Shown here: positions 4,099 through 31,523 of the stretch, piece after piece
Layout of the letters: each line of letters opens with the position of its first letter
How positions within the stretch are numbered: the stretch's first letter is position 1
Assembly (NCBI GenBank): GCA_965224465.1
Contig: OZ245049.1
Span: 3,630,001 to 3,662,000, forward strand
Direction of reading: 5' to 3'
Length of the DNA stretch: 32,000 nt
Source: Flavobacteriaceae bacterium
GTDB taxonomy: Bacteria > Bacteroidota > Bacteroidia > Flavobacteriales > Flavobacteriaceae
Program-made: the position numbers and the translations under genes
The notes under the pieces: model-generated
Seen by the model: the letters and a program-made list of their open reading frames with translations, nothing else
Told to the model about the DNA's origin: nothing
Databases searched by the model: none

Positions 4099-4127
4099 CG
4101 TAAGCGTACGGTAAAGTACACCCTTGA

Positions 4128-9045: not shown

Positions 9046-9056
9046 AATAAAAATCT

Positions 9057-10589: not shown

Positions 10590-12853
10590 ATATAATTACC
10601 TCAATTATTCCTGACTATTTTTTAACAGAAGAACAAAAATACGAAACAGTTGAAAGAGAAGCCAAAACAGGAGAAAAAACTACATTATATGTAGATGTAT
10701 GTAAGGCATATATCGAAGTCCCTTTTAGAACCGATGTAGAAGAAGTAACTGTAGAAAAAGAAAAAGTAGTTGACTTACGTAAATTTAAAAAAGCAAAAGA
10801 CGATAAAAAAGACCTTTGGTATAAAGTAGTATTAGATGATACAACTAGTAGCCAATGTGTAGCAGTAAAAGGCTGGGTAAAAGAAAAGGATCTTGACAAA
10901 TTTAGCGCTTACGATTGGCAAAAATTTGGTTTTAAAGATCTAGACGCAGGTAATGAATACATATACTCTGTAAAAGACTTACGTGAGGCAACAGATAGTG
11001 CCGATTTTGTAACCGAAATTTGGGATAAAACAATAGATACAGATGGCAATAAAGTATTAGATATACTAGAGCTTATTAGAGCGTTTAGTAAACCAGAAAT
11101 AGCACAAAAACTATCTCGTTTGGTATGTAAGCACAAAAATGAATGGTCTTATACTATGGACGAAATAAAACCAGAAGTAAAAGAACTCTATGATTTTGGT
11201 ATACAATTAGAAGAAGTTACAGCCGAAAAACAAAAACTAGAAACCGAAAGGGATGATAGTTTAGCCAAAATGGAAACCAAAATAGAAAATTTAATGTGGT
11301 GGGATGAGGCAAGTAAAAAACCCTACACAGCACCCGTAAAAGAAGAAGATAAAACAAAAACGAGTAGCACCAAAAGACCTTCTATGTTGCCAGAAGGTAC
11401 AGTGGTAGAAGAAATACCACAAAAAGATGTTGTACCTTTAGACAATAAAACAACAGCAGCTAAACCAGATGCTAAACCAACGAAAGATAGTATACCAACG
11501 ACAAGTACAACCGCTGCTCCAGCACCAGAAACTAAAGTAGAAGAAAAAGAAGTACCACCAAAACGTATGTTTCCAAGTACAGATATAGTACATCATTTTC
11601 ATCCTATTGCTTGGGTGGAGCAGATGAGACTTGTTTTTGGGGAAGGTGGCGGAGATTGTGAATCTCTTATTTGGGGAAATAAAGTAAGTTGTGAATTTAG
11701 AAAACGAGTAATTCAAATATCTAAACGTCTTGAATGCGATCCTAATCATTTAATGGGAGCTATGGCTTTAGAAACTGGAGGGAAATTTGACCCTAAGGTC
11801 GATAATGGTTTAGGTAAAGACAAAGATGGTATTGGTTACATCGGATTAATTCAGCTTGGAAATGATGCTATAAAAGATATGAATAGGAATTATTTTCTAC
11901 ATAGGGCAAAAATTAAAAAGAAAGATTTAAGAGCAATGTCTGCCGTAGAGCAATTATGCTATGTAGAATATTATTTAGCCAAACATAAAGGTAAACTTAA
12001 AACCTTAGCAGATTTTTATTTAGCAATACTTTGGCCAGTAGCAGTAGGTCACGGATCAGAACCAAATTATATCATTTTTGATGATGATTCAGTAGGGGAT
12101 AAGAAAACAGCATACCATTCAAACCCTACATTTCATAGAGAAGAAGATGAATATAAGAAGAATAGTAAAGGAAAAATCTATAAAAGACATGGTAAGGCAG
12201 GAGGTAAAACGTATGTTTGGGAAATAGCTGAAGCTATACAAGAATGGTATGATAAGGGAGTGCCTGAAAAAAACACTTCTAGTACCTGTACTTGTAATAC
12301 AGATTGCTCATGTGGTAAAGGATGTATTGATTTAACAGGTAAAGTTACTTGGGTGAGTCAGTATAATAAATCGGAGCTAAGAAAGAATAAACAAGGGCGC
12401 TTAGAGATGTATACAAAGGCTTGCTGGAAAACTTCAAGAAAGTTATTGCTTAATGCAGGGCTTGGCACTGATTCCGGTAAAAATATGAGTCCTATTATTA
12501 CGGCTTTAGAAAATAAAGATCATACTTCTATAGCATTAACAACAGATGCTCAATCTGGTGTTAGTTATATTGATGTTCAGTTAGAAAAAGGAAACCCTGT
12601 CTTAGTTGGCTTAAACCATACACTTTCTTATGGAATAAATGATAAGACAACAGACCATTTTGTTGTTATTGTTGGTAGAGCTTGCGAAAATAATAAAACA
12701 TACTATCGATTTTATGAAGTAGGTACTAGTTGGGCTCATTTAGGGCAGCATTCAAATAACAAATTTTTTTTAGGAGATGATTTTTCTTTAAGGTCATATA
12801 GGAAAAATAAATCTGAAAAATATTTAGTAAGTCAAGTACGTGAAAATTTTTAA
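10535..12853 (+). CDS. Full-length polymorphic toxin: conserved N-terminal/handle region + SLT/lysozyme-like domain + C39-like papain-fold peptidase domain
   Basis: 772 aa. The N-terminal part is unique to this gene. Nucleotides 11094-11640 are the handle shared with the downstream cassettes: a coiled coil, a P/T/K-rich linker and HHFHPIAWVEQM. The variable C-terminus follows. Its first domain is lysozyme-like (HLMGAMALETGGKFDP...GYIGLIQLGNDAI). Its second is Cys/His papain-like (TWVSQY...KACWKTS...TDHFVVIVGR...FYEVGTS). The only Met start overlaps the upstream ORF, so it may really be a -1 frameshift continuation of it. Confidence 0.8.
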   Translation: MDRKNIYFQNSRKNKKKLDIITSIIPDYFLTEEQKYETVEREAKTGEKTTLYVDVCKAYIEVPFRTDVEEVTVEKEKVVDLRKFKKAKDDKKDLWYKVVLDDTTSSQCVAVKGWVKEKDLDKFSAYDWQKFGFKDLDAGNEYIYSVKDLREATDSADFVTEIWDKTIDTDGNKVLDILELIRAFSKPEIAQKLSRLVCKHKNEWSYTMDEIKPEVKELYDFGIQLEEVTAEKQKLETERDDSLAKMETKIENLMWWDEASKKPYTAPVKEEDKTKTSSTKRPSMLPEGTVVEEIPQKDVVPLDNKTTAAKPDAKPTKDSIPTTSTTAAPAPETKVEEKEVPPKRMFPSTDIVHHFHPIAWVEQMRLVFGEGGGDCESLIWGNKVSCEFRKRVIQISKRLECDPNHLMGAMALETGGKFDPKVDNGLGKDKDGIGYIGLIQLGNDAIKDMNRNYFLHRAKIKKKDLRAMSAVEQLCYVEYYLAKHKGKLKTLADFYLAILWPVAVGHGSEPNYIIFDDDSVGDKKTAYHSNPTFHREEDEYKKNSKGKIYKRHGKAGGKTYVWEIAEAIQEWYDKGVPEKNTSSTCTCNTDCSCGKGCIDLTGKVTWVSQYNKSELRKNKQGRLEMYTKACWKTSRKLLLNAGLGTDSGKNMSPIITALENKDHTSIALTTDAQSGVSYIDVQLEKGNPVLVGLNHTLSYGINDKTTDHFVVIVGRACENNKTYYRFYEVGTSWAHLGQHSNNKFFLGDDFSLRSYRKNKSEKYLVSQVRENF
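10577..10585 (+). other. A9 homopolymer / A_AAA_AAA slippery heptamer at the junction of ORFs 9057-10589 and 10535-12853
   Basis: In the upstream frame the codons read ATA AAA AAA AAT TAG. A -1 shift on A_AAA_AAA (10577-10583) continues as AAA TTA GAT ATA ATT ACC (K L D I I T), which is the downstream ORF frame. Confidence 0.35.
11094..11640 (+). repeat. Handle repeat, copy 1 (master copy inside the full-length toxin gene)
   Basis: It begins CAGAAATAGCACAAAAACTATCTCG and ends ...CATCATTTTCATCCTATTGCTTGGGTGGAGCAGATGAGACTTGTTTTTGG. It differs from copies 4 and 6 by only about ten substitutions, by eye. Confidence 0.9.
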
Positions 12854-12857
12854 TAGC

Positions 12858-13715
12858 ATGGTTAGAGTAATAAAAGTAGTTTGTTTATGTATCTTTTTTA
12901 GTTCTTGTTTTAACGTGAAAGAAGATACTAATAAAAAAGGACTAAATAATAAAGTTATTAACGCTACTTCTAATAAAAAAATAAGTCAAAATTATTTTAA
13001 AAACTTAAAGGAGTTTAAAAGTTTTATAGAAGGGAAGAGGTGGGTTGATGTAAAAGATGAATTCCCTTGTTATGAAGACAGTAGAAGTATAATGATGAAA
13101 GGAAATTATGTTTATATATATACAATGGAGCCCACTAAGTGCAAAATAGAAAGTATAAAGCAAGTAGATTCAAAAACCTTAGAGATTAAAGTAGAAAAAG
13201 GAAGTAGCCGAGGAAATAGAACTCTTCAGCTTGAGATTATTAGCTTAGAAGAACGTTTAGTTAAATGGACAAATTATTATGAAGAAACATTTGAAGCTAA
13301 GCCTTATGATATTATTTGTAAAGATTGGAGTAAAGAACCTGAAAAGAAAGAATCTTACCATACCAGTATGTATAACATTAAAAATGCTACATTAAGTATA
13401 AATGGAAAATGGGAAGGTTTATATTATTTCAAAGGTGGTGAGTTAGATCTTGATTATATCTTAGATTTTAAAGAAGGTAGAATGCAGTTAAATGTTCAGG
13501 CTCGTCAATATGGTTATTCAGATCAATTAAAAGCTGTTCAATTAGGTGATACTCTAGGTTTATATCATCATAAAAATATATCAGGCTATAATTATGATGA
13601 AGATCGAGCATATGATTTTTTAAAATTTTATAAATCGTCAGATGGCAAGTTTTATTTTGAAGGTAAACTACCTTATTTACCAAAAGGAGCTATTGAGTTT
13701 GATAAAGTAAAATAA
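12858..13715 (+). CDS. Lipoprotein, candidate immunity protein I1 for the full-length toxin
   Basis: Signal peptide with lipobox-like Cys (MVRVIKVVCLCIFFSSC). It starts 4 nt after the toxin stop, or overlaps it if GTG 12840 is used. No recognisable enzymatic motif. Position and topology fit immunity against a periplasm-acting toxin. Confidence 0.7.
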   Translation: MVRVIKVVCLCIFFSSCFNVKEDTNKKGLNNKVINATSNKKISQNYFKNLKEFKSFIEGKRWVDVKDEFPCYEDSRSIMMKGNYVYIYTMEPTKCKIESIKQVDSKTLEIKVEKGSSRGNRTLQLEIISLEERLVKWTNYYEETFEAKPYDIICKDWSKEPEKKESYHTSMYNIKNATLSINGKWEGLYYFKGGELDLDYILDFKEGRMQLNVQARQYGYSDQLKAVQLGDTLGLYHHKNISGYNYDEDRAYDFLKFYKSSDGKFYFEGKLPYLPKGAIEFDKVK

Positions 13716-13733
13716 CCCTCGCTACCGTGCTAT

Positions 13734-15098
13734 TTGTACGCTGCTCCAGCACCAGAAACTAAAGTAGAAGAAAAAGAAGTGCCACCAGAACGTATGTTTC
13801 CAAGTACCAATATAGTACATCATTTTCATCCTATTGCTTGGGTGGAGCAGATGAGGTTGTTGGAAAAACAAACTGGTGAATGTTATTGTAATAGAGATTT
13901 TGAAGCTGACGACCTTAAAGTAATGGTAAAAAGAATTAGAGATAATACTTTCTATAAAGGTAAGTCTATTACTAAATTTCATCAAGAAAAATTATTTCAT
14001 GGTCGTGGTGGTGTACCAGAATCAGATCGGAACTTTGAGAAGTTTTCAGATGTACTAAACAAATCGTTTACTAAATACGGCATAACAAATTGTATTCATA
14101 AAATACATTTCCTAGCTAACATGTATGTAGAGACGATGTATTTTACAGCCACAGAGGAACTTCCAAATGAATCAAACGCTAATTATAAGAAATATAAACC
14201 TTATGTTGGTCGTGGATTTATGCATTTAACTTGGGATTATCATTACAAAGAATATTCTGAAATAGCTGGAAATACAGATATTAAATCAGGAACTAACTAT
14301 AAAAAAGCAGCAAGTAATCTAGAATTGGCAGCTGATACAGCAGGTTGGTATTGGAAAAAAAGTAAACTCAATTCCTTGTCAGAAACAGATGACATTTTAA
14401 AAACCACAAAAAAAATTAATGGTGGTACTAATGGTTATAAACATCGTAGAATTGCTTGGATTAAACTTAAAGAAATATTTAATTACCCTCATGGTTGTAG
14501 TACCGATAGTAGCAAACACGAAGCACCTGTATATGGTGAAGGTGTTTTAGAAGAAATGCGTGAATGGGCAGATAAGCATGTGCAGTATAAAATGGAAAGT
14601 GAATGGGTTGGGAAAAGACGAACTGGATTACGTTCTAGTCAAACAAAAGATGCTCTTGGACGATTAGATTGTTCAGAATTTGTATGTCGATATTTATATA
14701 AATTAGGAGTAACAAATACTTTAAAAGTTATTGTAACAAGTGGTATGACAAACCAAACTGATTTCAGGAAAAATCTTGGAAATGATAATATTGAACATAT
14801 TTATGGAAGTGAGAAGGAAGATTTTATTCCTCAAGCAGGCGATATATTTGTTTGGTCAAGATCTAGTAGCGATGGTCATACAGGTATTGTGCATAGTGTA
14901 GATGGAAACAAAATTACTATACTTGAAGCAATTGGTCAAGGTGGATCAGCGGATAAAACTTTTAACGCTAACAATGGTGGATATGAAGGTAAAAACTCTA
15001 CTCGTACATCCGTTTATAAAAGAAATGGTGGTGCATTATCTGGTCATGGAGGTTGGAAAGGGTATTTTAGACCTCTTAACTATTCAAAAATAAAATAA
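13734..15098 (+). CDS. Orphan toxin cassette T2: short handle remnant + GH19 (chitinase/endolysin-like) + NlpC/P60-CHAP-type peptidase
   Basis: It begins inside the handle (APAPETKVEEKEVPPERMFPSTNIVHHFHPIAWVEQM) and has no ATG; the track start is a TTG. GH19 motifs are IHFLANMYVETMYF and YVGRGFMHLTW. The C-terminal papain-like peptidase shows GRLDCSEFVCRYLY...AGDIFVW...GHTGIVHSVDGNKITILEA. Confidence 0.75.
   Translation: MYAAPAPETKVEEKEVPPERMFPSTNIVHHFHPIAWVEQMRLLEKQTGECYCNRDFEADDLKVMVKRIRDNTFYKGKSITKFHQEKLFHGRGGVPESDRNFEKFSDVLNKSFTKYGITNCIHKIHFLANMYVETMYFTATEELPNESNANYKKYKPYVGRGFMHLTWDYHYKEYSEIAGNTDIKSGTNYKKAASNLELAADTAGWYWKKSKLNSLSETDDILKTTKKINGGTNGYKHRRIAWIKLKEIFNYPHGCSTDSSKHEAPVYGEGVLEEMREWADKHVQYKMESEWVGKRRTGLRSSQTKDALGRLDCSEFVCRYLYKLGVTNTLKVIVTSGMTNQTDFRKNLGNDNIEHIYGSEKEDFIPQAGDIFVWSRSSSDGHTGIVHSVDGNKITILEAIGQGGSADKTFNANNGGYEGKNSTRTSVYKRNGGALSGHGGWKGYFRPLNYSKIK
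13739..13856 (+). repeat. Handle repeat, copy 2 (3'-terminal about 120 nt only)
   Basis: CGCTGCTCCAGCACCAGAAACTAAAGTAGAAG...GGGTGGAGCAGATGAGG. It matches the last part of copy 1. Confidence 0.85.
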
Positions 15099-15103
15099 AA
15101 CAC

Positions 15104-15892
15104 ATGAAACAAACAATAAAATTTATCAGCATACTACTTATTTTTTTTTCTTGTAAAGGTCAGATTAAACAAAAAACAGAACCTTTTCAAATCTTAACCA
15201 ATCAAGAATTAAAATTAAAATCTATAAATGAACTCCGATTGTTTAGAAATGAAGTTTTTGCTCGCAAAGGATATGTGTTTAAAGATGGGGAATTAAACAA
15301 TTATTTTAAAGCACAAAGCTGGTACATACCTAATAATGATAATAACACCATTGTGTTTTCAGAAAAAGAACAAGTATATATCTATGAAATAAAAAAAACA
15401 GAAAAAACCTTAGCGTTAAATACTAATAGAAAATGTTTAAGTAATTTAAGTAAACAATATTCTGACTTATACCCTCTGACAAATAAAGATTTACTTAATG
15501 AAAAGTTTAAATACAGCAAACAGTTGTATGGTATTGAAATCCAGAGCCCTAGTCCTATGATAAAAGGCAATCTTTGTGGTGGTGGAAGTGTTTGGAATCT
15601 TAAATGTTCAGGAAATGTTAATTACCAATTATTATTTTACACTTGTGATTCTGATAATCTTTATATGAGTTTAGCTATTATTAAGAATGAAGATGATATG
15701 GATTTTCTAAAACTTTACGGCACTTATGTTCATGATTTTAAAAATGTAGATAAATATAGTTTTATTTTAGACCATGATAACTTAGATATTATCAAAACCA
15801 ATTACACCAATACAGAAGATTACAAAGAAAAAGAAGTTTCAAAAGAAGTAAAAAAATATAAGTTAACTGATAATGGTATTATAGAGTTATAG
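15104..15892 (+). CDS. Lipoprotein with YARHG domain, candidate immunity I2
   Basis: Signal/lipobox MKQTIKFISILLIFFSC. LRLFRNEVFARKGYVFKDGELNNYFKAQSWY matches the YARHG domain signature. It starts 5 nt after the T2 stop. Confidence 0.75.
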   Translation: MKQTIKFISILLIFFSCKGQIKQKTEPFQILTNQELKLKSINELRLFRNEVFARKGYVFKDGELNNYFKAQSWYIPNNDNNTIVFSEKEQVYIYEIKKTEKTLALNTNRKCLSNLSKQYSDLYPLTNKDLLNEKFKYSKQLYGIEIQSPSPMIKGNLCGGGSVWNLKCSGNVNYQLLFYTCDSDNLYMSLAIIKNEDDMDFLKLYGTYVHDFKNVDKYSFILDHDNLDIIKTNYTNTEDYKEKEVSKEVKKYKLTDNGIIEL

Positions 15893-15946
15893 ATCGAAAG
15901 GTAAAAAAATGTATTTTAGAAAGATTAACTATACGAAAAAAATATA

Positions 15947-16958
15947 ATATGCTTGTCCGCTAGTTTCCCTAATATTTTTGTTGTATTTTCATAAAACATA
16001 AATAATCGATATGAGATTAATTGAATTTAGTGAGCACTACCCAGATGAAGCCAGTTGTAAAGCAGCATTTAAGTCCTATCGCGAAAAAGAAGGGGTTAAG
16101 TGTAAAAAGTGTGGAGGAACTACTCATTATTGGAAAAAGAAACGAGAACAGTGGGAATGTAAAAACTGTACTCACAGAACAACGTTGAAAAGCGGTACTG
16201 TTATGCAAAGCAGTAAATTACCTTTTAAGTATTGGTTTATAGCTATGCATTTAATAACAAGCACAAAAAAATCATTTTCGGCTAAAGAGATTCAACGTCA
16301 GATAGGTCATAAAAGATATGAGCCTATTTGGGCAATGGTTCATAAGTTAAGATGCGTTATGGGGTTAAGAGACGATGAATATCAGCTTAGTGATGAGGTT
16401 GAATTGGATGATGGGTTTTTTGAAACCGTTTCAATAACAAGAGATAAAACAGCACCTTTAAAAAGGGGGCGAGGAAGTCAAAGACAATCAATAGTATTAG
16501 TAAGTATAGAGTCTAAACTAGAATCAGAACACTATAACAGCAAGAAACACAGGGTGAATAAGAGAGTGAAATTCCTAAAGATGAAAGTAATCAGTTCTTT
16601 AAAGAAAGAAGAGGTAGCTCAAACTGTAAATCAAATGGTTGAAGGAGGTAGCAAAATAATTTCCGATGGATCAAATAGCTTTAATGACTTGACTAAGGAT
16701 TTTGAACTAGTCTCTAATGTTGTGCCAAAGAAAAATATCAATTCTATTTTACCTTGGGTTCACAAAGCAATTAGTAACGCCAAAAGGCTATTACTGGATG
16801 TCCATCATAGAATAGATGATGATTTTCTTCAAAATTACTTGAACGAGTACTGCTACAAATTCAATAGGAGAACATTTAATAACTTATTCGACAGGCTTAT
16901 GATTGCAGCGGTATCATATAGATGGAATTATCTTGGGGAAGTTAACGGATAAGCATAT
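15947..16958 (+). mobile_element. IS1595-family insertion sequence
   Basis: Terminal inverted repeats ATATGCTTGTCCGCTAGTT (15947-) and the reverse complement of AAGTTAACGGATAAGCATAT (-16958). Encodes a single transposase. The right end abuts the interrupted 5' end of an immunity gene, whose intact copy is at 31526. Confidence 0.8.
16011..16952 (+). CDS. IS1595-family transposase (zinc-ribbon + DDE_Tnp_IS1595)
   Basis: 313 aa. N-terminal Zn ribbon (CKKCGG...WECKNCTHRTTLKSGTVMQSSKLPFKYWFIAMHL) followed by a DDE region (VELDDGFF...ISDGSNSF...NYLNEYCYKFNRR). Confidence 0.9.
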   Translation: MRLIEFSEHYPDEASCKAAFKSYREKEGVKCKKCGGTTHYWKKKREQWECKNCTHRTTLKSGTVMQSSKLPFKYWFIAMHLITSTKKSFSAKEIQRQIGHKRYEPIWAMVHKLRCVMGLRDDEYQLSDEVELDDGFFETVSITRDKTAPLKRGRGSQRQSIVLVSIESKLESEHYNSKKHRVNKRVKFLKMKVISSLKKEEVAQTVNQMVEGGSKIISDGSNSFNDLTKDFELVSNVVPKKNINSILPWVHKAISNAKRLLLDVHHRIDDDFLQNYLNEYCYKFNRRTFNNLFDRLMIAAVSYRWNYLGEVNG

Positions 16959-16973
16959 AAGTTTATCATAACA

Positions 16974-17954
16974 GTGTTATTTATAACTACAATCGCATGT
17001 AAAAATAATGCTCAAAACACAGACAATACAAATAGTACTCAAGAAATATTAACTGAATTACCCGATGAAATAGCTAATAAAACATGGGTTTATATTAATC
17101 CCATAGAGAAACAATGGTTTAAAACCATGTTAGAATATAATGATAGGGAATATATAAAGACAGAAACAAACTCCATTGATGTGCCTATAGATCTCTATGA
17201 CCCTGTTAGATCTTCTCAAAAAATAGAGTCTATTACTGTAAATGATAAAGGTTATTCTATTAAGTTTAATAAGTCAAAAAAACTAGGAGGTATTGATTTT
17301 AAATGGCTAGATAAAAGTAAAGGATTAGGGATTTGGGAGATAAAGTACATAGATGAAGGATATGCGGAATTTGGAGATACAATTGTCAGAAAAAAAAGTG
17401 TGATAAAAAAATTTATTACGCCAAATAATTTTCCTAAACCTAAACCTAAAGAAGAAATAATAATTGTAGGAGAGGATAAGCCTATTGATTCTAATATCTA
17501 TTCTGAATTGATAGATGACCTACCTATAGAAGGACGATTTTCTTGTAAATACACAGAAGAAGGAGAGACTTATACTGGTGCGTTTTTAGAAATATCAAAT
17601 AAAGATTATGAAGTTGAAAATGTATCCAATAATACCATTGAAACTTATAAAAATGAGATAAAAATTAAAATAGAAGATGTTTTGTATCTCCAATGCAATG
17701 CGAGAAAAATAAAATCATCAACAAATAAATATGCTTTGTTTTATAAGATATTTTACACGAAATATGAAGCACCTGTAGATTCCCAATATTATTCAACAAC
17801 TCGTCCAATAGCAGAAATAGAAATATTAGATAACAATACCATAGAAAAGAAATGGCTAGGAATCTATAACAAGAGAACAAAACAAGTTGAAAGTATTAAT
17901 GGTTATTTTACTTGGGGCGATGAATTTTGTGATATTATAAAGCGAATTGAATAA
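16974..17954 (+). CDS. Toxin-less copy of immunity lipoprotein I6, 5' end removed by IS1595
   Basis: From 16959 onward it is identical, by eye, to 31543-32000. The intact copy starts MKSINKFIITVLFITTIACKNN. Here the first codons are replaced by the IS end, and only an alternative GTG start (MLFITTIAC) remains. No cognate toxin lies upstream. Confidence 0.6.
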   Translation: MLFITTIACKNNAQNTDNTNSTQEILTELPDEIANKTWVYINPIEKQWFKTMLEYNDREYIKTETNSIDVPIDLYDPVRSSQKIESITVNDKGYSIKFNKSKKLGGIDFKWLDKSKGLGIWEIKYIDEGYAEFGDTIVRKKSVIKKFITPNNFPKPKPKEEIIIVGEDKPIDSNIYSELIDDLPIEGRFSCKYTEEGETYTGAFLEISNKDYEVENVSNNTIETYKNEIKIKIEDVLYLQCNARKIKSSTNKYALFYKIFYTKYEAPVDSQYYSTTRPIAEIEILDNNTIEKKWLGIYNKRTKQVESINGYFTWGDEFCDIIKRIE

Positions 17955-20739: not shown

Positions 20740-20768
20740 AAAAAACAATAGCGCGTAATTGCATTCCG

Positions 20769-23258: not shown

Positions 23259-23322
23259 TTATTAAGTTGAGAGTTTAATTATAAAAAAAATCAGTATTTT
23301 AAATTTACTTTAATCAAGTATA

Positions 23323-23883: not shown

Positions 23884-25217
23884 ATGAAACAGGAGAATGT
23901 TATTGCAATAGAGATTTTACTGTGGAAGAATTTAAAAATATTTTTATCCGATTAAGAAGAAGTGAGGAATATAATTTAAACATCCTTAATGGAAATAATT
24001 GTAACATACCTAGTTCAGATAAAATATTAGAAAGACTTACAGAAGAATTTAATATAACTGCTAAAAAATATGAAATCAATAAGTGCATCCAAAAAATACA
24101 TTTTTTAGCACAAATATACTGGGAGTCAGATCGTTTGAAAACAGGGTTAGAATATGCTAGTGGAAACTATTATAACCCTATCGATGGACATAAAAATGCT
24201 AAGAGCAATGGAAATACACAAGCGGGTGATGGTCCTAAATATAAAGGACGGGGTTTTATGCAATTAACATGGCGCAGTACTCAAATAAAATATCTTAAAC
24301 ATGCAGCAAAAAATACAGACGGCGCATTAAAAGGTAAATCAGATGCCGAATTAGAATTAAGAAGTAATAACTATGAAAAATATATATCCGATGATTTAGC
24401 ATATGCATTGGATTCTGCTGGGTGGTTTTGGTCTAATTATAAAAAAGCAGGTTCAAAATATTCGGAAATAAAAGGAAAAAATTTGAATGAAATAGCATTG
24501 TTTCAGGATAAATACCAAAAATACATTTCTATACTAGTGAATGGAGGTGGCAATGGTAAAAAAGAAAGGGAAAAATATTACAAAAAATTAAAACGATTTT
24601 TAAAATTGGACACTAAATGTATCAATAATAAAAATAGTTCAGTAACTAATAAAAATGATTCAAATACTCCTTGGGTTAAAACTGCAAAAGGAGAATTAGG
24701 AGTTGAGGAAATTTATGGTATAAAGTACAATGATCCTAGAGTTCTTGAATACCATGAAACAGCAGGCTATACTGCAAAATTAATGGGGAGAAAAATTACC
24801 GATGATTGGATTGGAGACTATAAAGACGCATGGTGTGGATCATTTGTTTATTGGTGTTATTTTAAATCAGGAATTACAAAAGAAAACTTAAATAAAAGTG
24901 GGTATAATGCTTACTCTTGGCGAAATTGGGGAGTGGAGTCAGATAAAAAAGAACCTTGCTATGGAGCTTTAGCAGTTTGCAATTTTTCACATGTCGGTTT
25001 TGTGGTAGGTAAAAAAGGCAACAAAATTGTTTTATTAGGAGGTAATCAAACTGGAGGTGATACATCTACTAAAGGAATGGTTTGTTATACTACTGTAAAA
25101 AAGGAAGATATAATTACATATAGATATCCATCAAATTTTAATATTCAAAACATAAATTATGATCTTAAAGAAATATCAACCAATAGTGGTAGTGATAATT
25201 TTGGCACTAGTCGCTAG
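23349..25217 (+). CDS. Orphan toxin cassette T4: full handle + GH19 + CHAP (TIGR02594-like) peptidase
   Basis: Homology to the full-length gene begins at 23323, mid-codon context of ...EIAQKLSRLVCKHKNEW. There is no ATG/RBS at the track start (TTG). GH19 motifs: IHFLAQIYWESDRL and YKGRGFMQLTW. CHAP-like motifs: DAWCGSFVYWCYFKSG...YGALAVCNFSHVGFVVGKKGNKIVLLGGNQ. Confidence 0.75.
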   Translation: MVCKHKNEWSYTMDEIKPEVKELYDFGIQLEEVTAEKQKLETERDDSLAKMETKIENLMWWDEASKKTYTAPIKEEDKTKTSSTKRPSMLPEGTVVEEIPQKDVVPLYNKTTAAKPDAKPDAKPTEDSIPTTSTTAAPAPETKVEEKEVPPKRMFPSTNIVHHFHPIAWVEQMKLVFGDETGECYCNRDFTVEEFKNIFIRLRRSEEYNLNILNGNNCNIPSSDKILERLTEEFNITAKKYEINKCIQKIHFLAQIYWESDRLKTGLEYASGNYYNPIDGHKNAKSNGNTQAGDGPKYKGRGFMQLTWRSTQIKYLKHAAKNTDGALKGKSDAELELRSNNYEKYISDDLAYALDSAGWFWSNYKKAGSKYSEIKGKNLNEIALFQDKYQKYISILVNGGGNGKKEREKYYKKLKRFLKLDTKCINNKNSSVTNKNDSNTPWVKTAKGELGVEEIYGIKYNDPRVLEYHETAGYTAKLMGRKITDDWIGDYKDAWCGSFVYWCYFKSGITKENLNKSGYNAYSWRNWGVESDKKEPCYGALAVCNFSHVGFVVGKKGNKIVLLGGNQTGGDTSTKGMVCYTTVKKEDIITYRYPSNFNIQNINYDLKEISTNSGSDNFGTSR

Positions 25218-26100
25218 CTTATATTCTTGTAAACGAACTAATAATGTAGTAAGTAATAAAAAGGAGTTAAGCTTAGCCTTATCTTTATGCGATTCGATAG
25301 ACTCACAAGGAGCTAATAGGGTTTTTTGTAAGGGTTGGTTAAGCAACAAAGGTATTCAAAAGGCTATTTTATTTTCAAAAACTAGAACTAACTCTAAAGA
25401 AGAGTTTTTTGCTGAATTTTTTACAGAAAAAGATTTCAATAGTCCATTAGTCAAAGTATATGATTTCATTGAGGACTGTCCGGTTGATTTTAGTGTAAAT
25501 TTCATTGAGGACTCATTTTCTGTTACAGATATTAATAATAATGGAATAAAAGAAGTGTCATTTTTATACGAGATAGTATGTCAAGGAGGGATTGGTCCAA
25601 TAAAAATGAAGTCAATCCTAATTGAAGGACGTCAAAAATATGTAATCCGAGGATTTAGATTAGATGATGTGTCAATAAAAAATAATAAGACGCCTAATTA
25701 CCCAAGATCTATAATAGATGAAAATTTTATTAATGCTCCACATAGCTTTTTGGATTTTTCAAGTAAAAAATGGATGAAATATCATGGAACAAGATTATTA
25801 AATTTTGACAAAAAAAATAAATATTCAATCAAAAAGGCATCTCTAATTGACTCAGATATTGTTTTATATCTATCAAATAATCAAAATAAAAAATTTAAAA
25901 CCCCTTATTTTCTTGAAGATGAAAACCCTAAAATTTGGATAAAAAACAAAAAGATAATCCTATATTATGGTGATCACTATGGGAATTCTATAGAATCAAC
26001 TTGGTCTTATTTTTCAAAACAAGATAATTTAATTTTAGAAAGCCTTACTGGAACATTTCCAATCAAAAATAAGGAACAAGATAATTTAAAAGTATCTTAA
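25159..26100 (+). CDS. Lipoprotein, candidate immunity I4
   Basis: Signal/lipobox MILKKYQPIVVVIILALVASLYSC. It overlaps the T4 3' end by 59 nt. Confidence 0.7.
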   Translation: MILKKYQPIVVVIILALVASLYSCKRTNNVVSNKKELSLALSLCDSIDSQGANRVFCKGWLSNKGIQKAILFSKTRTNSKEEFFAEFFTEKDFNSPLVKVYDFIEDCPVDFSVNFIEDSFSVTDINNNGIKEVSFLYEIVCQGGIGPIKMKSILIEGRQKYVIRGFRLDDVSIKNNKTPNYPRSIIDENFINAPHSFLDFSSKKWMKYHGTRLLNFDKKNKYSIKKASLIDSDIVLYLSNNQNKKFKTPYFLEDENPKIWIKNKKIILYYGDHYGNSIESTWSYFSKQDNLILESLTGTFPIKNKEQDNLKVS

Positions 26101-27220
26101 ATTCAACTAATAAACGCAACTTTTCGATTTGATTCTATGATGGTTATATTTTCAAAACAGAAAAGTAGGAAAACCTACCTTTCTTGTCTTGATGGATATG
26201 TATCTTACGGTCTCAAATCTCGAAAAAAGAAGTTGTATGAAACACATCACCCAAGCACAAAGATACACAATTTGCTGCATGTTAAAACAAGGTTATAAAC
26301 AGGTTGAGATAGCAGCTGCTATAGGAAAAGACAAGTCTGTTATTAGCAAAGAGATTAAGCGTAATTCAGACAAAAGAAATGGAGTTTACAAGCATGAATT
26401 AGCCCAAAAAAAGTATGCTAAACGTCATAAAGAAAAGCCTAAAAGAAAACGCTTTACAGAAGATATTCAACAAGCAATAGAATTGTTATTGCGAGACGAT
26501 TATAGTCCTGAGCAAGTAGTTGGTATCCTAAAAAAACAAGGTAAAGAAACGGTGTCTATTGAGCGTATATATCAGCATATTAGGGAAGACAAGAGGAATG
26601 ATGGTGATTTACATACACACCTTCGCAGACAGGGAAGGAGATATAGAAAACGTGGCTCATCAAAGGATTCTAGAGGGGTTATAAAGAATCGCATTAGTAT
26701 AGAACAACGACCTGAAGTTGTTGAACAAAGAAATCGATTTGGAGATTTAGAGGTCGATTTAATCATAGGTAAAAACCATAATCAAGCCATACTTACCGTA
26801 AATGATAGAGCTTCTGGAATGCTTAAAATGAAAAAAGTAAGCTCTAAAGAAGCAGTTGTTGTCACCAAAGCTATCAATGAAATATTAGAAGACTGGAAGC
26901 CTTATCTACATACTATAACAGCTGATAATGGAAAAGAATTTGCAGGCCATGAGCAGGTTGCAGAAAATTTATGTATTGATTACTTTTTTGCGCATCCATA
27001 TCACTCTTGGGAAAGAGGATCTAACGAAAATTTAAATGGTTTGATTAGACAATATTTTGCCAAAGGAAGTGACTTTACAAACCTAACAGATCAAAGAATC
27101 AAAGAGGTAGAAACAAAATTAAATAACAGACCTAGGAAGAGACATAAATACGAAAACCCTATATTTGTAATGGAACAATTATTATTTAACTAAAAGTTGC
27201 GTTTGTGACTTGAATTCAGC
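26098..27220 (+). mobile_element. IS30-family insertion sequence, complete copy C
   Basis: Same termini as copy A (AATTCAACTAATAAACGCAAC at the left, GTTGCGTTTGTGACTTGAATTCAGC at the right). It sits between I4 and the handle-truncated T5 cassette. Left boundary uncertain by a few bp. Confidence 0.85.
26189..27193 (+). CDS. IS30-family DDE transposase
   Basis: 334 aa, 2 aa different from the 98-1102 copy (V/I and Q/E). Confidence 0.93.
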   Translation: MMDMYLTVSNLEKRSCMKHITQAQRYTICCMLKQGYKQVEIAAAIGKDKSVISKEIKRNSDKRNGVYKHELAQKKYAKRHKEKPKRKRFTEDIQQAIELLLRDDYSPEQVVGILKKQGKETVSIERIYQHIREDKRNDGDLHTHLRRQGRRYRKRGSSKDSRGVIKNRISIEQRPEVVEQRNRFGDLEVDLIIGKNHNQAILTVNDRASGMLKMKKVSSKEAVVVTKAINEILEDWKPYLHTITADNGKEFAGHEQVAENLCIDYFFAHPYHSWERGSNENLNGLIRQYFAKGSDFTNLTDQRIKEVETKLNNRPRKRHKYENPIFVMEQLLFN

Positions 27221-27277
27221 TATGTAAAATAAGCGGTTTAAATATTAATATCAAAGAAATAGACATAGAGAAAGTAT

Positions 27278-28810
27278 ATGGTTTATTACAAGAGTCTAAG
27301 AATTGTGTTTATCAAACCATGTAATAAAGTAGAAGAAAAAGAAGTGCCACCAAAACGTATGTTTCCTAAAAGCAATATAGTACATCACTTTCATCCAATT
27401 GCTTGGGTGGAGCAGATGAGACTTGTTTTTGGAGAGGGTGGTGGGAATTGTTTATGCTCTAGAGACCTTACTGAAGATGAAGTTACCAACATGGTAAAAC
27501 GAATTTCAGGAAAAGGCAGCCTTTGGAATGGTATTTATGAATCCTGTGATATTACCGATAAAAGTTTTTCTTCATTTAGAGATGAACTCAATAAGATGTT
27601 TAAAAAACATGGGTTTAATACATGTATTGATAAGATATCATTTTTAGCGCAAGCAGCACACGAAACAGGAGGCTTTCAGCAGAATAAAGAGGAGAAAAGT
27701 AAATACTTATCAAGTCAAAGTACTTATAAGGGAAGAGGAATGATCCAATTGACTGGAAATAAAGATAAAAGTACAGGTTATTATAATTTAGCGGGTGTAT
27801 ATAAATCTTATTCAAAGTATGTTAATGATCCAAATGTTGAAAGTGACCCAGATTTAGTTTCAAAAAATTTACACTATACAGTAGATTCAAGCGGTTGGTT
27901 TTTCAAATCCAAAAAAGTTCCTAAATGGAATAAGAAATGGTTAAAATACGATAATCTCAGAAGGGAAAGACTAAGCCATTTTAGTGAAGGTTTAGGTAAA
28001 AATTTACTAGAATTATCTCCTTTTATAAATAAAGATGAAAAGTACTTTTGGTTACAATCGAAAATTATAAATGGTTATTTTAAATCAGATACACTAAAAA
28101 GTCACCCAAATGGTTGGAATGATAGGGTAGAATCTTTTATGCAATTAAGATCTGTTTTTCATTTTGGAACAGAGTGTGTAAATAATCTTGAAAAGTTAGA
28201 AATAGAGGAAAGGGCTCCATGGATGAAGATCGCAATAGAAGAAGCAGAAAAAGCGGCTGGATGTCATGAAGGTAAAGAGCCTTTGCTAACAATGGGTAAG
28301 AGTTACTTAACATTTGCAGGTAACAATAAATCTCCTGATGACGATGTAGATGGTCAATGGTGTGCATCTTTTTTATCATGGTGTATTGATAAATCTAAAT
28401 TTACGGTTCATTCTGAAAAATGGAAAAGATCCAATTCACAGGAATTTAGAAAGAGTGCTGAAGCTGGAGTATTTTATAAAAAGATAGATAAACCCATATT
28501 TGGTGCTTTAGCTGTTTATACTAAATATAGTGATAGTGATCATGGCCATATAGGTTTTATTGCAGGGAAAACTAAAGCAGGAAAGTATCTTTTATTAGGT
28601 GGTAATCAAGGTGATACTATAAGAGCAGCCTCTTATGGAGAAAAGACAAAAACAAAATACTTGAATGGTTTTTATATACCGAAAGATTACAATGTAACAG
28701 ATAAAGATTATCTCACAAATGATGAACAGAACTATTCGAGTTCTAGTGAATTAAATTATAAACTAGGAATTTACACAAAAGTCAAAAATGATTCAGAGAA
28801 AACAAGTTAG
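27278..28810 (+). CDS. Orphan toxin cassette T5: minimal handle remnant + GH19 + CHAP (TIGR02594-like) peptidase
   Basis: Handle homology is present only from 27325 (KVEEKEVPPKRMFPKSNIVHHFHPIAWVEQM). An unrelated 16-codon leader with an ATG at 27278 precedes it. GH19 motifs: ISFLAQAAHETGGF and YKGRGMIQLTG. CHAP-like motifs: QWCASFLSWCIDKS...GALAVYTKYSDSDHGHIGFIAGKTKAGKYLLLGGNQ. Confidence 0.75.
   Translation: MVYYKSLRIVFIKPCNKVEEKEVPPKRMFPKSNIVHHFHPIAWVEQMRLVFGEGGGNCLCSRDLTEDEVTNMVKRISGKGSLWNGIYESCDITDKSFSSFRDELNKMFKKHGFNTCIDKISFLAQAAHETGGFQQNKEEKSKYLSSQSTYKGRGMIQLTGNKDKSTGYYNLAGVYKSYSKYVNDPNVESDPDLVSKNLHYTVDSSGWFFKSKKVPKWNKKWLKYDNLRRERLSHFSEGLGKNLLELSPFINKDEKYFWLQSKIINGYFKSDTLKSHPNGWNDRVESFMQLRSVFHFGTECVNNLEKLEIEERAPWMKIAIEEAEKAAGCHEGKEPLLTMGKSYLTFAGNNKSPDDDVDGQWCASFLSWCIDKSKFTVHSEKWKRSNSQEFRKSAEAGVFYKKIDKPIFGALAVYTKYSDSDHGHIGFIAGKTKAGKYLLLGGNQGDTIRAASYGEKTKTKYLNGFYIPKDYNVTDKDYLTNDEQNYSSSSELNYKLGIYTKVKNDSEKTS
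27325..27432 (+). repeat. Handle repeat, copy 5 (3'-terminal about 110 nt only)
   Basis: TAAAGTAGAAGAAAAAGAAGTGCCACCAAAACG...GAGCAGATGAGACTTGTTTTTGG. Confidence 0.85.
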
Positions 28811-29513
28811 CTTATTCATATCAATTCTTCTAATTTTATTGTTTAATGTTAGTTGTAAGAGAAAAATAAAACAGGAAATTTTTGTTAAAAAAGAGACAGA
28901 AGTAAAACCTGTAATTAAACAAGTATCCAAAGTTTATGTTGATAATTTAACCCGTGATAAATTCGATTCTCTCTTAAATTCAGGAATAATTGATAATATT
29001 GATTATAATGGAGATTTAGTTTCGTGTTACAAAATAGTAGACAAATCGGGGGGGCATTATCTAATTTTAACTCATGATTACACCAAGAATATAATTTACT
29101 TCTACTATGCTGAACAAGAAGCTTTTGGAGTGAAGCTAATATGGAGCATAAGTGATTCGGTTGTTCAAACTGATTATTCGGAAGAATATGATATATATTT
29201 TCTCAAAAATTACATTCATGTTGCTGATTTTGATAATGATGATTTAGTTGATATAATTCTGGTATATAAGACAAATTCAAAAGAAGATTATGATAGATTA
29301 AAAATTAGAATCTTTCATAAAGATTCTAAGGTTTTAATAAATCACAAAGGAGCTTCCTTGGATGATGAAAGGGAAACTAAAATAGATCAAAGTTTTTATT
29401 CTTTACCCAAATCGATAAGGCAACAAGTTTTTTTAGATATCAAAGAAATCAACGTTGAAGTTTTAAGTATTAACTCAGATGTGTTAAAGAAAATTGGTGT
29501 TAATTTATATTAA
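28788..29513 (+). CDS. Lipoprotein, candidate immunity I5
   Basis: 241 aa with a lipobox (LLFNVSC). Its ATG overlaps the T5 stop by 23 nt. Contains VADFDNDDLVDIILVY, an FG-GAP-like Asp-rich loop. A near-identical copy is at 21334-22059. Confidence 0.75.
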   Translation: MIQRKQVSLFISILLILLFNVSCKRKIKQEIFVKKETEVKPVIKQVSKVYVDNLTRDKFDSLLNSGIIDNIDYNGDLVSCYKIVDKSGGHYLILTHDYTKNIIYFYYAEQEAFGVKLIWSISDSVVQTDYSEEYDIYFLKNYIHVADFDNDDLVDIILVYKTNSKEDYDRLKIRIFHKDSKVLINHKGASLDDERETKIDQSFYSLPKSIRQQVFLDIKEINVEVLSINSDVLKKIGVNLY

Positions 29514-29601
29514 ATCCCCGCCCCCGCTAGTTCAATGTTATTAAGTTGAGAGTTTAATTATAAAAAAAATCAGTATTTTAAATTTACTTTAATCAAGTAT
29601 A

Positions 29602-30148
29602 CAGAAATAGCACAAAAACTATCTCGTTTGGTATGTAAGCACAAAAATGAATGGTCTTATACTATGGACGAAATAAAACCAGAAGTAAAAGAACTCTATG
29701 ATTTTGGTATACAATTAGAAGAAGTTACAGCCGAAAAACAAAAACTAGAAACTGAAAGGGATGATAGTTTAGCCAAAATGGAAACCAAAATAGAAAATTT
29801 AATGTGGTGGGATGAGGCAAGTAAAAAAACCTACACAGCACCCATAAAAGAAGAAGATAAAACAAAAACGAGTAGCACCAAAAGACCTTCTATGTTGCCA
29901 GAAGGTACAGTGGTAGAAGAAATACCACAAAAAGATGTTGTACCTTTAGACAATAAAACAACAGCAGCTAAACCAGATGCTAAACCACCGGAAGATAGTA
30001 TACCAACGACAAGTACAACCGCTGCTCCAGCACCAGAAACTAAAGTAGAAGAAAAAGAAGTGCCACCAAAACGTATGTTTCCAAGTACAGATATAGTACA
30101 TCATTTTCATCCTATTGCTTGGGTGGAGCAGATGAAGCTTATTTTTGG
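29602..30148 (+). repeat. Handle repeat, copy 6 (full length)
   Basis: Same 5' boundary as copies 1 and 4. It diverges from them after GAGCAGATGAAGCTTATTTTTGG. Confidence 0.9.
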
Positions 30149-31523
30149 AACGCAAGCTAAGTATTGTACCCAAGAAATGAAAGTAAGGGCATTCTTACGA
30201 CTTATAAAATACAAAGAAGGAAAACCCGGAGAGGAAGGGTATAGACAACTCTTTGGAGGAAAGTCTTTTTCAGGGTTTAATGACCACCCTAAAAATTCTG
30301 AAACATATGTAGTAAATGGCAAATCTATAACCTCAGATGCGGCAGGTGCGTATCAAATTATGGGAGGCACATGGGATACATCACCACTTAATGACAAAAA
30401 AGAGAAATATGGAGTCAAAGATTTTAGTCCGTTATCTCAAGATTATGCAGCTTTAGTTTTGTTAAAGTATCAAAAGAAAGATACTAAACCTAGTGATTAT
30501 CAAGTAAAGAATTGGGGCAATAAATGGGCTGATAAAATGATAAAAAAATGGAAGATGAAATATCCGAAAATTACTAGAGATTCTTTTCCAAAACATACCA
30601 ATAGATATATAAACGCTACAGGCGATATTATCCAAATGTTGATAGACAATGATCTGGATAAAGCTTTATTGACAGCTGCTATTACATGGGCTAGTTTCCC
30701 TGACTCTATATATGGACAAGAGCCTTCATCGTATTCAATCGTTGATGCAAAAGTTAAGTTTAGAGAACTTTTATTACAAGAAATAAAAGGGGAAACCGAT
30801 TTATATTTAGAAGAAGGTTTTTTAAAGAAACTTGGATATAAATGTTGTGACAGTCAAAATAATGCTATTACAGGAACTTCTCCTGAGGGTAAAGAGCCTA
30901 TAGATTTACGTTTAACCATTCCTTGGCATTCACAATTTACAGCAGATACTTTTGGACCTTATCATCACCAAAGTTGGATGTGCTATGATACCTCATTAAT
31001 GATTCTACAAGAATTTGTAGGATTAACAGCGGGAGGTAAAAGAGGAAATAAATCAACAACAGTAAATGGCAGAGACCTTGGTACTTCAAATAATGTAATT
31101 CAAGTTTCTTTGGAGAATACGGAAGTAGATGGAAGCTATACTGTTACAGTGCCTGTTGTAAAAAATACTGAAACTGGTATTGTTTATTTAGATCAAGAAT
31201 TAGAAAAAGGTAACCCTATATTAGTTGGTGTCCGTCATACTTATAAAAAGGTTAAAAAAACAAAGGGTTATAAATATGAGCAAAATTATGATAAATCTAC
31301 GGATCACTTTGTGATTGTAGTTGGTCGTGGTTATGAAAATGGAAAAAGGTATTTTCTTTTTTATGAAGTAGGTACAAGTTGTTCCGATAAAGGGCAACAC
31401 GATAAAAATAGATTATTTGTAAATGATGATTGGTCTATAGCTGGGATACCACAGCATAACCTGACGAGAACTTATACATTAACTCAAGTAAGAGGAAATA
31501 AAACTAACGGTAACTTTAAGTAA
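29628..31523 (+). CDS. Orphan toxin cassette T6: full handle + GH104 (phage lambda lysozyme-like lytic transglycosylase) + C39-like papain-fold peptidase
   Basis: Handle homology starts at 29602. The GH104 region aligns by eye to lambda R: AFLRLIKYKEGK...GYRQLFGGKSFSGFNDHP...AAGAYQIMGGTWD...YGVKDFSPLSQDYAALVLL...WASFPDSIYGQ. The C-terminal domain is homologous to that of the full-length toxin (IPWHSQF...WMCYDTSLMILQEF...TDHFVIVVGRG...FYEVGTS). Confidence 0.78.
   Translation: MVCKHKNEWSYTMDEIKPEVKELYDFGIQLEEVTAEKQKLETERDDSLAKMETKIENLMWWDEASKKTYTAPIKEEDKTKTSSTKRPSMLPEGTVVEEIPQKDVVPLDNKTTAAKPDAKPPEDSIPTTSTTAAPAPETKVEEKEVPPKRMFPSTDIVHHFHPIAWVEQMKLIFGTQAKYCTQEMKVRAFLRLIKYKEGKPGEEGYRQLFGGKSFSGFNDHPKNSETYVVNGKSITSDAAGAYQIMGGTWDTSPLNDKKEKYGVKDFSPLSQDYAALVLLKYQKKDTKPSDYQVKNWGNKWADKMIKKWKMKYPKITRDSFPKHTNRYINATGDIIQMLIDNDLDKALLTAAITWASFPDSIYGQEPSSYSIVDAKVKFRELLLQEIKGETDLYLEEGFLKKLGYKCCDSQNNAITGTSPEGKEPIDLRLTIPWHSQFTADTFGPYHHQSWMCYDTSLMILQEFVGLTAGGKRGNKSTTVNGRDLGTSNNVIQVSLENTEVDGSYTVTVPVVKNTETGIVYLDQELEKGNPILVGVRHTYKKVKKTKGYKYEQNYDKSTDHFVIVVGRGYENGKRYFLFYEVGTSCSDKGQHDKNRLFVNDDWSIAGIPQHNLTRTYTLTQVRGNKTNGNFK

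Follow-up and report, generated by a model that had tools for sequence, protein, structure and literature searches.

A putative type VI secretion effector locus with dual-hydrolase tips, an orphan array and lipoprotein immunity genes in a Flavobacteriaceae bacterium

The window analyzed here, a 32,000-nucleotide (nt) stretch of the genome of a Flavobacteriaceae bacterium (contig OZ245049.1), carries the gene of a PAAR spike-tip protein, followed by the gene of an effector of about 1264 amino acids (aa), a lipoprotein gene and an array of further toxin-tip and lipoprotein genes (Table 1). This is probably an auxiliary effector locus of a type VI secretion system (T6SS), combining WHIX-type dual-hydrolase tips, an orphan array and lipoprotein immunity. 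In the proposed mechanism, the PAAR gene precedes a cargo effector with a match to WHIX region 1 and a polymorphic tip after the junction HHFHPIAWVEQM; the tip would couple a glycan cutter (lytic transglycosylase (LT), GH19 or GH104-like) to a peptide or amidase cutter (C39-like, CHAP or M15). As it lacks a signal peptide, the effector would presumably be fired into the periplasm of a neighboring cell, where both modules would attack the sacculus; protection of the producer and its kin would come from the lipoprotein encoded directly downstream. Orphan tips would be swapped in by homologous recombination, and IS30, IS1595 and IS4-like insertions would later have fragmented the array. Domain homologies, gene order, the repeats, the between-strain tip swap and the modular composition of the I1 immunity family are seen directly; secretion, periplasmic toxicity and activity of both modules are predictions from the sequence. 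The GC content of the window is about 30%, every relevant gene lies on the + strand, and the nearest relatives of the source organism are Tenacibaculum, Aquimarina and Cellulophaga.

Effector gene, junction and orphan array

In the window, two overlapping open reading frames (ORFs), 9057-10589 and 10535-12853, correspond to a single 1264-aa gene in a near-identical metagenome contig (L001). The preliminary description of this DNA, whose ORFs and coordinates were confirmed, had presented six equivalent cassettes, T1 to T6. T1 is the C-terminal tip of this full-length, PAAR-adjacent effector, whereas T2 to T6 are orphan tips that lack a delivery domain, all five being intact ORFs of 454-631 aa.

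The tip is preceded by a delivery region of about 900 aa, at the N-terminus of which effector residues 27-113 match WHIX region 1 (residues 31-126) of V. alginolyticus WP_005373349.1 with 38% identity (BLASTP, E 9e-17; reference sequence taken from the AlphaFold 3 (AF3) file of PMC12135965). The WHxxxH motif from which WHIX takes its name is present as WHGGIH at residues 36-41. An SH3_3-like insert sits between the two presumed WHIX regions of the effector; the SH3_3 match (E 1.2e-5) reaches 25.8 bits versus a gathering score of 27.

The junction motif is present in every toxin ORF, and motif positions and alignment indicate that the sequences diverge right after it. The pre-toxin block at 11094-11640 is repeated before T3, T4 and T6 at 94-98% identity, and about 117 nt of it are repeated before T2 and T5 (self-blastn). 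The orphan cassettes T2-T6 keep 117-560 nt of pre-toxin homology, and homologous recombination can therefore swap tips. Such an exchange is seen between strains: positions 8392-11635 are 99% identical to L001 and the tips differ past the junction, L001 carrying a T2-type tip with a YARHG immunity gene and the window T1 and its immunity gene I1, with T2 and I2 as the next cassette. The T2 DNA is 85% identical to the main-effector tip of L001. By analogy, this difference is the tip-displacement pattern of Rhs and CdiA orphan arrays.

Behind the main gene, the array consists of five intact tip-immunity cassettes, one tip remnant and two duplicated immunity genes, and is interrupted by IS1595, IS4-like and IS30 insertions. 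A common junction, divergent tips, orphans with upstream homology and an immunity gene after each tip, as in polymorphic toxin systems, are thus found together. At 20769-22090, the tip remnant (of type B, see below) is fused to the duplicate of the T5 3' end and I5, and 23258-23881 resembles 29537-30148; apparently a segment was duplicated here, and the IS4-like element split the duplication afterwards.

The state of the array raises the question of decay, in which case the orphan tips and the frameshifted main gene would be pseudogenes and only the immunity genes would matter, as an acquired defense island against the toxins of neighbors. This could explain the frameshift, the five transposase genes or fragments within 16-27 kb (with more upstream), the tip remnant and the extra immunity copies without a toxin of their own, one of which (I6') has lost its first 4 codons to IS1595 and thus has a truncated signal peptide. 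Decay on this scale is nevertheless improbable, as the five orphan tips are intact and keep their catalytic residues, the between-strain tip swap shows that orphans are used, and the poly-A indel lies at a typical site of sequencing error or phase variation in a gene that is intact in L001. The frameshift itself could be caused by a sequencing error, slipped-strand phase variation or pseudogenization.

The T6SS context of the effector is assigned because its relatives carry VgrG, PAAR or T6SSiii genes beside related toxins. A scan of genome contigs with the effector N-terminus found one locus only. The order VgrG-PAAR-effector-immunity is present in a Flavobacteriaceae metagenome-assembled genome (L002) and in Fulvivirga (L006), which also has an orphan cassette. 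In three Flavobacterium loci (L010, L012 and L013), LT-type and T3-type toxins lie beside the T6SSiii genes TssN, TssO, TssC and TssG and beside ClpV-like and DUF4280 genes. Together with the spike gene adjoining the effector in the window, these neighborhoods agree with the T6SS framing adopted in the preliminary description. Past its PAAR domain, the PAAR protein continues for about 55 aa (aa ~97-153), and this C-terminal extension could be an effector docking site.

Some observations count against an active WHIX-type T6SS effector locus. WHIX region 2 (prototype residues 271-476) gave no significant BLASTP segment in the effector, and the resemblance between IGYTG...HLEVF of the effector and IGYMG...HIEMF of the prototype is by eye only. 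There is no T6SS core gene or vgrG in the window, and a vgrG remnant looked for upstream of the PAAR gene was not found there; IS30, IS66 and IS4-like elements and a FecR/ECF-sigma pair are all that this region contains. With its frameshift, the main effector of the window may be inactive, or the frameshift may be a sequencing error.

Hydrolase modules of the tips and their lipoprotein partners

All six tips are confirmed, at the level of sequence and fold, to contain at least two peptidoglycan-hydrolase modules with intact catalytic residues. The module readings of the preliminary description and its pairing of a glycan cutter with a peptide cutter are borne out by PDB, profile and fold matches in which catalytic residues align; for the C-terminal module of T3, the support comes only from fold matches and from domain swaps in homologs. 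Pfam and NCBIfam alone gave only CHAP, TIGR02594, PG_binding_1 and PAAR. Among the modules, Pfam supports only CHAP and PG_binding_1, with GH19, M15_3 and C39_2 below threshold (E 0.01-0.12), and the glycosidase, M15 and C39 calls thus needed PDB sequence searches, profiles and fold searches.

In the LT module of T1, 'ALETGG' aligns with 'AFETGE' of PDB entry 9udh and the catalytic Glu of 'ETG' is kept; its homologs P0191 and P0194 carry PF01464. In the C39-like module, the Cys of KACWK and the His of TTDHF correspond in the alignment to conserved residues of 9jdd. The same Cys and His are aligned in the C-module of T6 (9jdd, E 1.5e-27), and Pfam Peptidase_C39_2 matches both C-modules at E 0.04-0.05, below the gathering score. 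These modules would be papain-fold Cys peptidases by homology; the term C39-like follows the PDB chains. The N-module of T6 matches lambda lysozyme (1am7, E 4e-10), and the catalytic Glu19 is aligned ('AWSEG' to 'KYKEG'). Chain C of 9jg8 has 617 aa, the first ~425 of which are unlike the N-modules of T1 or T6. Literature searches on 9JG8, 9JDD, 9UDH, C39-like T6SS effectors, Flavobacterium Fte1 and Tenacibaculum T6SS found no paper on these homologs.

The N-modules of T2, T4 and T5 are GH19-like. T2 matches endolysin 9ms7 in the PDB sequence search (E 4e-8) and Pfam Glyco_hydro_19 at E 0.0098 (16.1 bits versus a gathering score of 25.5), T4 and T5 giving no match to the latter. A joint profile of the three N-modules matches the GH19 endolysins 9ms7 (E 4.5e-12) and 4ok7 (E 1.3e-8) and the class IV chitinase 5h7t (E 5e-4), and the column of the GH19 catalytic Glu, within an FLAQxxHE[ST] helix, is invariant ('VET', 'WES' and 'HET'). 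For the C-modules, Pfam CHAP (gathering score 26) is exceeded by T2 (42.4 bits, E 1e-10) and T5 (28.1 bits), T4 being just below (24.6 bits). The homology of T4 and T5 to the TIGR02594 family is clear from sequence scores (E 5e-18 and 4e-17), with bits just under the NCBI subfamily cutoff (65.6 and 62.8 versus 70.55).

T3 has three modules, the first of which is PG_binding_1 (Pfam, E 1.2e-6). The AlphaFold2 (AF2) model of T3 (pLDDT 89.5) has as its top PDB match in Foldseek the Streptomyces albus Zn DD-peptidase 1lbu (M15; E 4e-5, probability 1.0), which itself consists of a peptidoglycan-binding (PGB) and an M15 domain. The M15 columns SGYRC...NHxGxAxD...WxHxD, with the Zn ligands H183, D189 and H259 typical of a LAS fold, are invariant across 44 sequences; Pfam M15_3 matches at E 0.12 only. 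The third module has an invariant Glu in 'KES'. Among the top viral matches of the T3 model (BFVD, E 5e-12 to 4e-8) are a SAR endolysin transglycosylase, a 'bacteriophage lysin' and gp5-type hub proteins, the aligned domain not being specified. Foldseek against lambda lysozyme gave E 0.6-0.8 only, the C-module had no Pfam match, and whole-alignment and C-module profiles of T3 found nothing among PDB sequences. The 'lysozyme-like' call for this module, which is suggested by fold matches and by domain swaps in homologs and has no curated family match, is the weaker point among the assignments.

Homologs indicate that the modules are exchanged. T3 has 349 homologs in Tenacibaculum, Flavobacterium, Chryseobacterium, Capnocytophaga and Kaistella, together with LysM-bearing Acinetobacter proteins; among those that keep PGB and M15, the third module is swapped for GH24, GH108, GH19, muramidase or glucosaminidase. 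The T1-type LT is fused elsewhere to CHAP, M23, YkuD or Amidase_5, and the C39-like module to GH104. From these sequences, the combination of a glycan cutter with a peptide cutter is a recurrent, freely recombining design in Flavobacteriia. The LysM-bearing Acinetobacter proteins (P0091-P0119, ~740-760 aa) share the M15 and lysin-like modules of T3, with 33-36% identity across more than 90% of the tip, and this module pair is thus in use in Proteobacteria as well. A T. maritimum toxin fragment (L003, 1-969) has an M23-like segment (AWHKG...HLEIY) seemingly joined to a C39-like domain and would thus be peptidase plus peptidase; the contig start cuts this gene, which also looks frameshifted.

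As the best structural matches include GH19 endolysins, lambda R and phage lysins, the tips could be endolysins of a phage or prophage, or housekeeping autolysins with lipoprotein regulators, rather than interbacterial toxins. This is very improbable and was rejected both for a phage lysis cassette and for an autolysin: no phage structural, holin or spanin genes are present among the window ORFs, the context is of T6SS type (PAAR here, VgrG or T6SSiii genes in relatives), a long delivery region with the WHIX region 1 match precedes the tip, a polymorphic junction and orphan cassettes follow, and the toxins lack a signal peptide.

The immunity genes start -59 to +5 nt from the toxin ends and encode proteins of 241-336 aa. 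As the preliminary description had stated, all six distinct partners have a signal peptide and a lipobox Cys: in each sequence the n-region contains K/R, a hydrophobic core is present and an [S/A]-Cys falls within positions 17-24. Its statement that each toxin has one small lipoprotein partner stands as to the single partner, but 'small' is misleading, because 241-336 aa leaves room for a pair of inhibitor domains, and such a pair is predicted for I1. The 291-aa ORF of I1 opens at GTG 12840; homolog P0203 favors Met at 12858. No pairwise sequence similarity was detected among I1-I6, and PDB sequence searches with I1 and I6 found no homolog. A YARHG domain (PF13308) is in the immunity position beside GH19 + CHAP toxins at three loci (window 15104-15892, L001 14270-15058 and L003 4383-5321). 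For this domain, described as 'in search of a function', peptidoglycan binding has been proposed (PMC3355149).

Modularity of the immunity proteins

The I1 family is modular. I1 has 13 full-length homologs (group A), and a further five proteins (group B), which are as long as I1, align with it only over its C-terminal 39-53%. In the family alignment, the C-module (I1 residues ~176-291) is highly conserved and the N-module (~24-170) occurs in two unalignable versions. The group B partners at L006 and L005 are LT + C39-like toxins, in which the LT is 56-57% and the C39-like module 29-30% identical to that of T1; the immunity proteins of these loci are 67-68% identical to I1 in the C-module and 20-21% in the N-module.

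Hidden Markov models (HMMs) of the modules were searched against about 30 immunity candidates from related loci. The C-module HMM matched a DUF5991 lipoprotein of L001 (E 7.7e-8), whose partner toxin has an LT and an unrelated second domain, and L008_212 (E 1.7e-4), whose partner is LT + C39-like. The HMM of N-module version A matched L003_273 (E 3e-48), the partner of a C39-like toxin with an apparent M23-type module in place of the LT, and that of version B matched L003_305 (E 1.9e-9), the partner of a remnant of a GH104 + C39-like toxin. In this small local search, the I1-family C-module (window 13365-13715) is thus distantly related to the DUF5991 lipoprotein (L001 16364-17188), and a possible role of DUF5991 as an inhibitor module for transglycosylases is suggested by this match.

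In the AF2 model of I1, residues 1-49 form a disordered tether, and a low-confidence linker (166-174) lies between two beta-rich domains (~56-160 and ~180-291); this linker coincides with the boundary of the sequence modules. Partial homologs exist for other partners: I4 residues 100-205 resemble the immunity protein L002_262, whose toxin shares with T4 only the TIGR02594 CHAP; the I4-like orphan L011_222 matches only I4 residues 1-217, without the last ~95; and homologs of I6 cover only its N-terminal or only its C-terminal part. Shared halves, partial homologs and the split of the AF2 model therefore support bipartite immunity proteins with modules that move along with those of the toxins. 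Each partner may accordingly be viewed as two inhibitor modules on one lipid anchor, the I1 C-module going with the LT and the N-module with the C39-like module, a view that is the best supported one and for which the chances are about evenly balanced. The assignment of each immunity module to the toxin module that it would bind is likewise deduced from sequence comparison.

A number of results argue against bipartite immunity as a general rule. The confidence of the I1 model is moderate (pLDDT 71.8, pTM 0.42), and Foldseek with this model found no significant PDB match. The I1-type C-module was not detected in the immunity proteins of LT + M23, LT + YkuD, LT + CHAP and LT + TIGR02594 toxins. 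In hhalign comparison of the I1 and I6 families, only the signal peptide matched though both partner C39-like toxins; one detectable module common to all C39-linked immunity proteins, a candidate until then, was dropped after this result. In the T3 family, toxins with 65%-identical PGB + M15 have immunity proteins without detectable similarity, and no M15-linked module was found. The module-to-module mapping is based on few loci, some of them related to each other.

Because PGB + M15 are kept while the immunity proteins are unrelated and only the glycosidase differs, the T3-family pattern fits neutralization of the glycosidase only at least as well. In such a case, only a single module per tip would be lethal and be inhibited by the lipoprotein, the glycan cutter being the likeliest candidate, and the other half of the lipoprotein would be a spacer, an anchor or a peptidoglycan binder, a role to which the YARHG domain of I2 as a proposed peptidoglycan binder (PMC3355149) would be suited. 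In Tae17, moreover, the transglycosylase contributes more to killing than the amidase does (PMC11796386). Inhibition of a single module is nonetheless rather unlikely: both halves of the I1 family are conserved within each group and each recurs with the matching toxin module, none of the six tips has lost the catalytic residues of either module, each Tae17 domain is toxic alone (PMC11796386), and TsiP inhibits both TseP domains (PMC11893102). The bipartite reading in its fullest form, that toxin and antidote are both two-piece kits and that recombination reshuffles two independent inhibitor modules in parallel with the modules of the toxin, is tentative, its probability falling somewhat short of even. 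If it is true, new toxin/antidote pairs could be built combinatorially, and one orphan immunity gene could guard against two toxin families.

Surroundings of the locus and comparison with known systems

The features of the window are collected in Table 1. The load of insertion sequence (IS) elements is very high, and several of them lie exactly at cassette borders. A divergent pair of genes for a FecR-like anti-sigma factor and an extracytoplasmic function (ECF) sigma factor at 1394-3289, amid IS elements, is probably unrelated to the toxin locus.

Table 1. Features of the 32,000-nt window, with positions counted from its first nucleotide
Feature	Position	Strand	Evidence or remark
IS30, three copies (one partial)	57-1196, 7344-8020, 26095-27234		
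IS66 (TnpB + transposase) and IS4/DDE fragments	3422-7264		
PAAR spike-tip protein, 153 aa	8584-9045	+	Pfam PAAR_motif E 5e-21; identical protein also precedes the effector in L001
Main effector, N-terminal part: WHIX region 1 (WHGGIH, aa 27-113) and SH3-like insert	9057-10589	+	
Poly-A tract with 1-nt deletion that splits the effector into two ORFs	10571-10587	+	A9 here, A10 in L001; direct comparison with L001
Effector linker / pre-toxin region, ending in the HHFHPIAWVEQM junction	10588-11626	+	Self-blastn, motif positions
T1 LT (SLT-like) module	11669-12190	+	PDB 9udh 'lytic transglycosidase' E 3e-19
T1 C39-like (papain-fold) Cys peptidase module	12293-12847	+	PDB 9jdd/9jg8 'Peptidase C39-like domain-containing protein' E 7e-33
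I1 lipoprotein	12858-13715	+	Lipobox FSSC; two beta-rich modules predicted (AF2)
T2 orphan tip: GH19-like + CHAP	13734-15098	+	
I2 lipoprotein with YARHG domain	15104-15892	+	Pfam YARHG E 2e-18; lipobox FFSC
IS1595-family transposase	16011-16952	+	Pfam DDE_Tnp_IS1595 E 1e-19
I6', orphan copy of I6	16957-17954	+	100% identity over 462 nt to 31539-32000
T3 orphan tip: PG_binding_1 (18441-18605) + M15 Zn-peptidase (~18657-19265) + phage-lysin-like domain (~19293-19826)	18039-19829	+	
I3 lipoprotein	19819-20739	+	Lipobox IVSC
Remnant of LT + C39-like (type B) tip, truncated	20769-21302	+	47% identity to T1 LT module; 66-70% to L006/L005 toxins
Duplicate of T5 3' end and I5 (I5' gene 21334-22059)	21303-22090	+	99% identity to 28757-29544
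IS4-like (DDE) transposase	22130-23224	+	Pfam DDE_5 and DDE_Tnp_1
T4 orphan tip: GH19-like + TIGR02594-type CHAP (24669-25124)	23349-25217	+	
I4 lipoprotein	25159-26100	+	Lipobox LYSC
IS30 element in array	26095-27234	+	Transposase 26189-27193; Pfam and self-blastn
T5 orphan tip: GH19-like + TIGR02594-type CHAP (28232-28645); 5' end cut by IS30	27278-28810	+	
I5 lipoprotein	28788-29513	+	Lipobox NVSC
T6 orphan tip: lambda-lysozyme-like GH104 (~30186-30470) + C39-like peptidase (30888-31499)	29628-31523	+	
I6 lipoprotein, running past the window end	31526-32000	+	Lipobox TIAC

T6SS wall-degrading effectors are models of bacterial warfare and leads for engineered lysins. In this marine Flavobacteriaceae locus the two-enzyme design is the rule, and the design is also seen in relatives from Flavobacterium, Chryseobacterium, Tenacibaculum and Aquimarina; within a small natural collection, the locus would provide six glycosidase/peptidase combinations together with the cognate inhibitor of each. 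If two-module immunity holds, it would directly answer how one antidote covers two enzymes and would provide isolated inhibitor domains for LT, GH19, GH104, CHAP and C39-like enzymes. Tenacibaculum maritimum and Flavobacterium covae/davisii are fish pathogens, and strain competition among such carrier species would be of practical relevance.

The locus is not a new kind of system, because Tse4, Tae17 and TseP/TsiP are already known as bifunctional wall effectors; the view in the preliminary description that T6SS wall effectors are usually single-domain is dated in the light of these characterized examples. New are the dual-module tips as the rule in every cassette, the sequence evidence for a bipartite I1 immunity family, and a probable WHIX-type effector in Bacteroidota, apparently unreported there, which would extend the WHIX loading domain past Proteobacteria to T6SSiii organisms.

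WHIX effectors with wall-targeting C-termini have been reported in Proteobacteria, and Bacteroidota are not mentioned in the available portions of that article's text and supplements, which include the S1 Dataset in part (Fridman et al., 2025; PMC12135965). As described in those portions, WHIX effectors resemble the window effector in the WHxxxH region, in polymorphic C-terminal peptidoglycan-targeting tips (GH19/chitinase-like, lambda-lysozyme-like and NlpC/P60 among them), in a signal-peptide immunity gene directly downstream and in PAAR or VgrG nearby (PMC12135965). The 'double-blade' WHIX effectors described there have one toxin on each side of WHIX and two immunity genes, whereas here both modules are C-terminal and there is one immunity gene; an SH3-like insert, a linker of ~350 aa and an orphan-tip array also set the window effector apart from the prototypes, and region 2 is not confirmed in it (PMC12135965).

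Tse4 of Acinetobacter baumannii has been called the first bifunctional T6SS effector and belongs, according to its authors, to a 'modular class' (bioRxiv 10.1101/2021.03.04.433973). Tse4/Tsi4 is similar to the cassettes here in joining peptidoglycan binding, an LT and a metallo-endopeptidase with one adjacent immunity gene, but its modules are LysM, a gp144-like LT and M23, its secretion is by a VgrG-dependent proteobacterial T6SSi, and it has no orphan array (bioRxiv 10.1101/2021.03.04.433973). Tae17 of A. baumannii AB307-0294 likewise combines an LT with a papain-fold (Tae3-like CHAP) amidase, both domains being toxic in the periplasm; unlike the tips here, it has LysM and an Ig-like loading domain, another module order and a single locus without cassettes (PMC11796386). 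TseP/TsiP of Aeromonas dhakensis pairs an amidase + lysozyme effector with one adjacent immunity gene, as Tse4 does (bioRxiv 10.1101/2021.03.04.433973; PMC11893102). TsiP binds both TseP domains, a precedent for what the preliminary description had left as an open question, namely how one partner could neutralize two catalytic domains (PMC11893102). The TseP domains are unrelated to those here, its N-domain is also structural in T6SS assembly, and TsiP has not been reported as a two-module lipoprotein with shuffling modules (PMC11893102).

At the level of single modules, the PDB entries 9jdd/9jg8/9jg9 (617 aa) are clear homologs of the T1 and T6 C-modules (E 1e-27 to 1e-33), and 9udh of the T1 N-module.

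At the level of the locus, the closest parallel is in array organization. Rhs and CdiA orphan arrays have a constant junction, abruptly diverging tips, downstream orphan tip-immunity pairs with upstream homology and tip displacement between strains. Junction, diverging tips, orphan pairs and displacement are all found here as well. Unlike the Rhs cage and the CdiA filament, the carrier here would be a WHIX-type cargo effector, and the tips would all be periplasm-acting wall hydrolases, whereas those of Rhs and CdiA are mostly nucleases.

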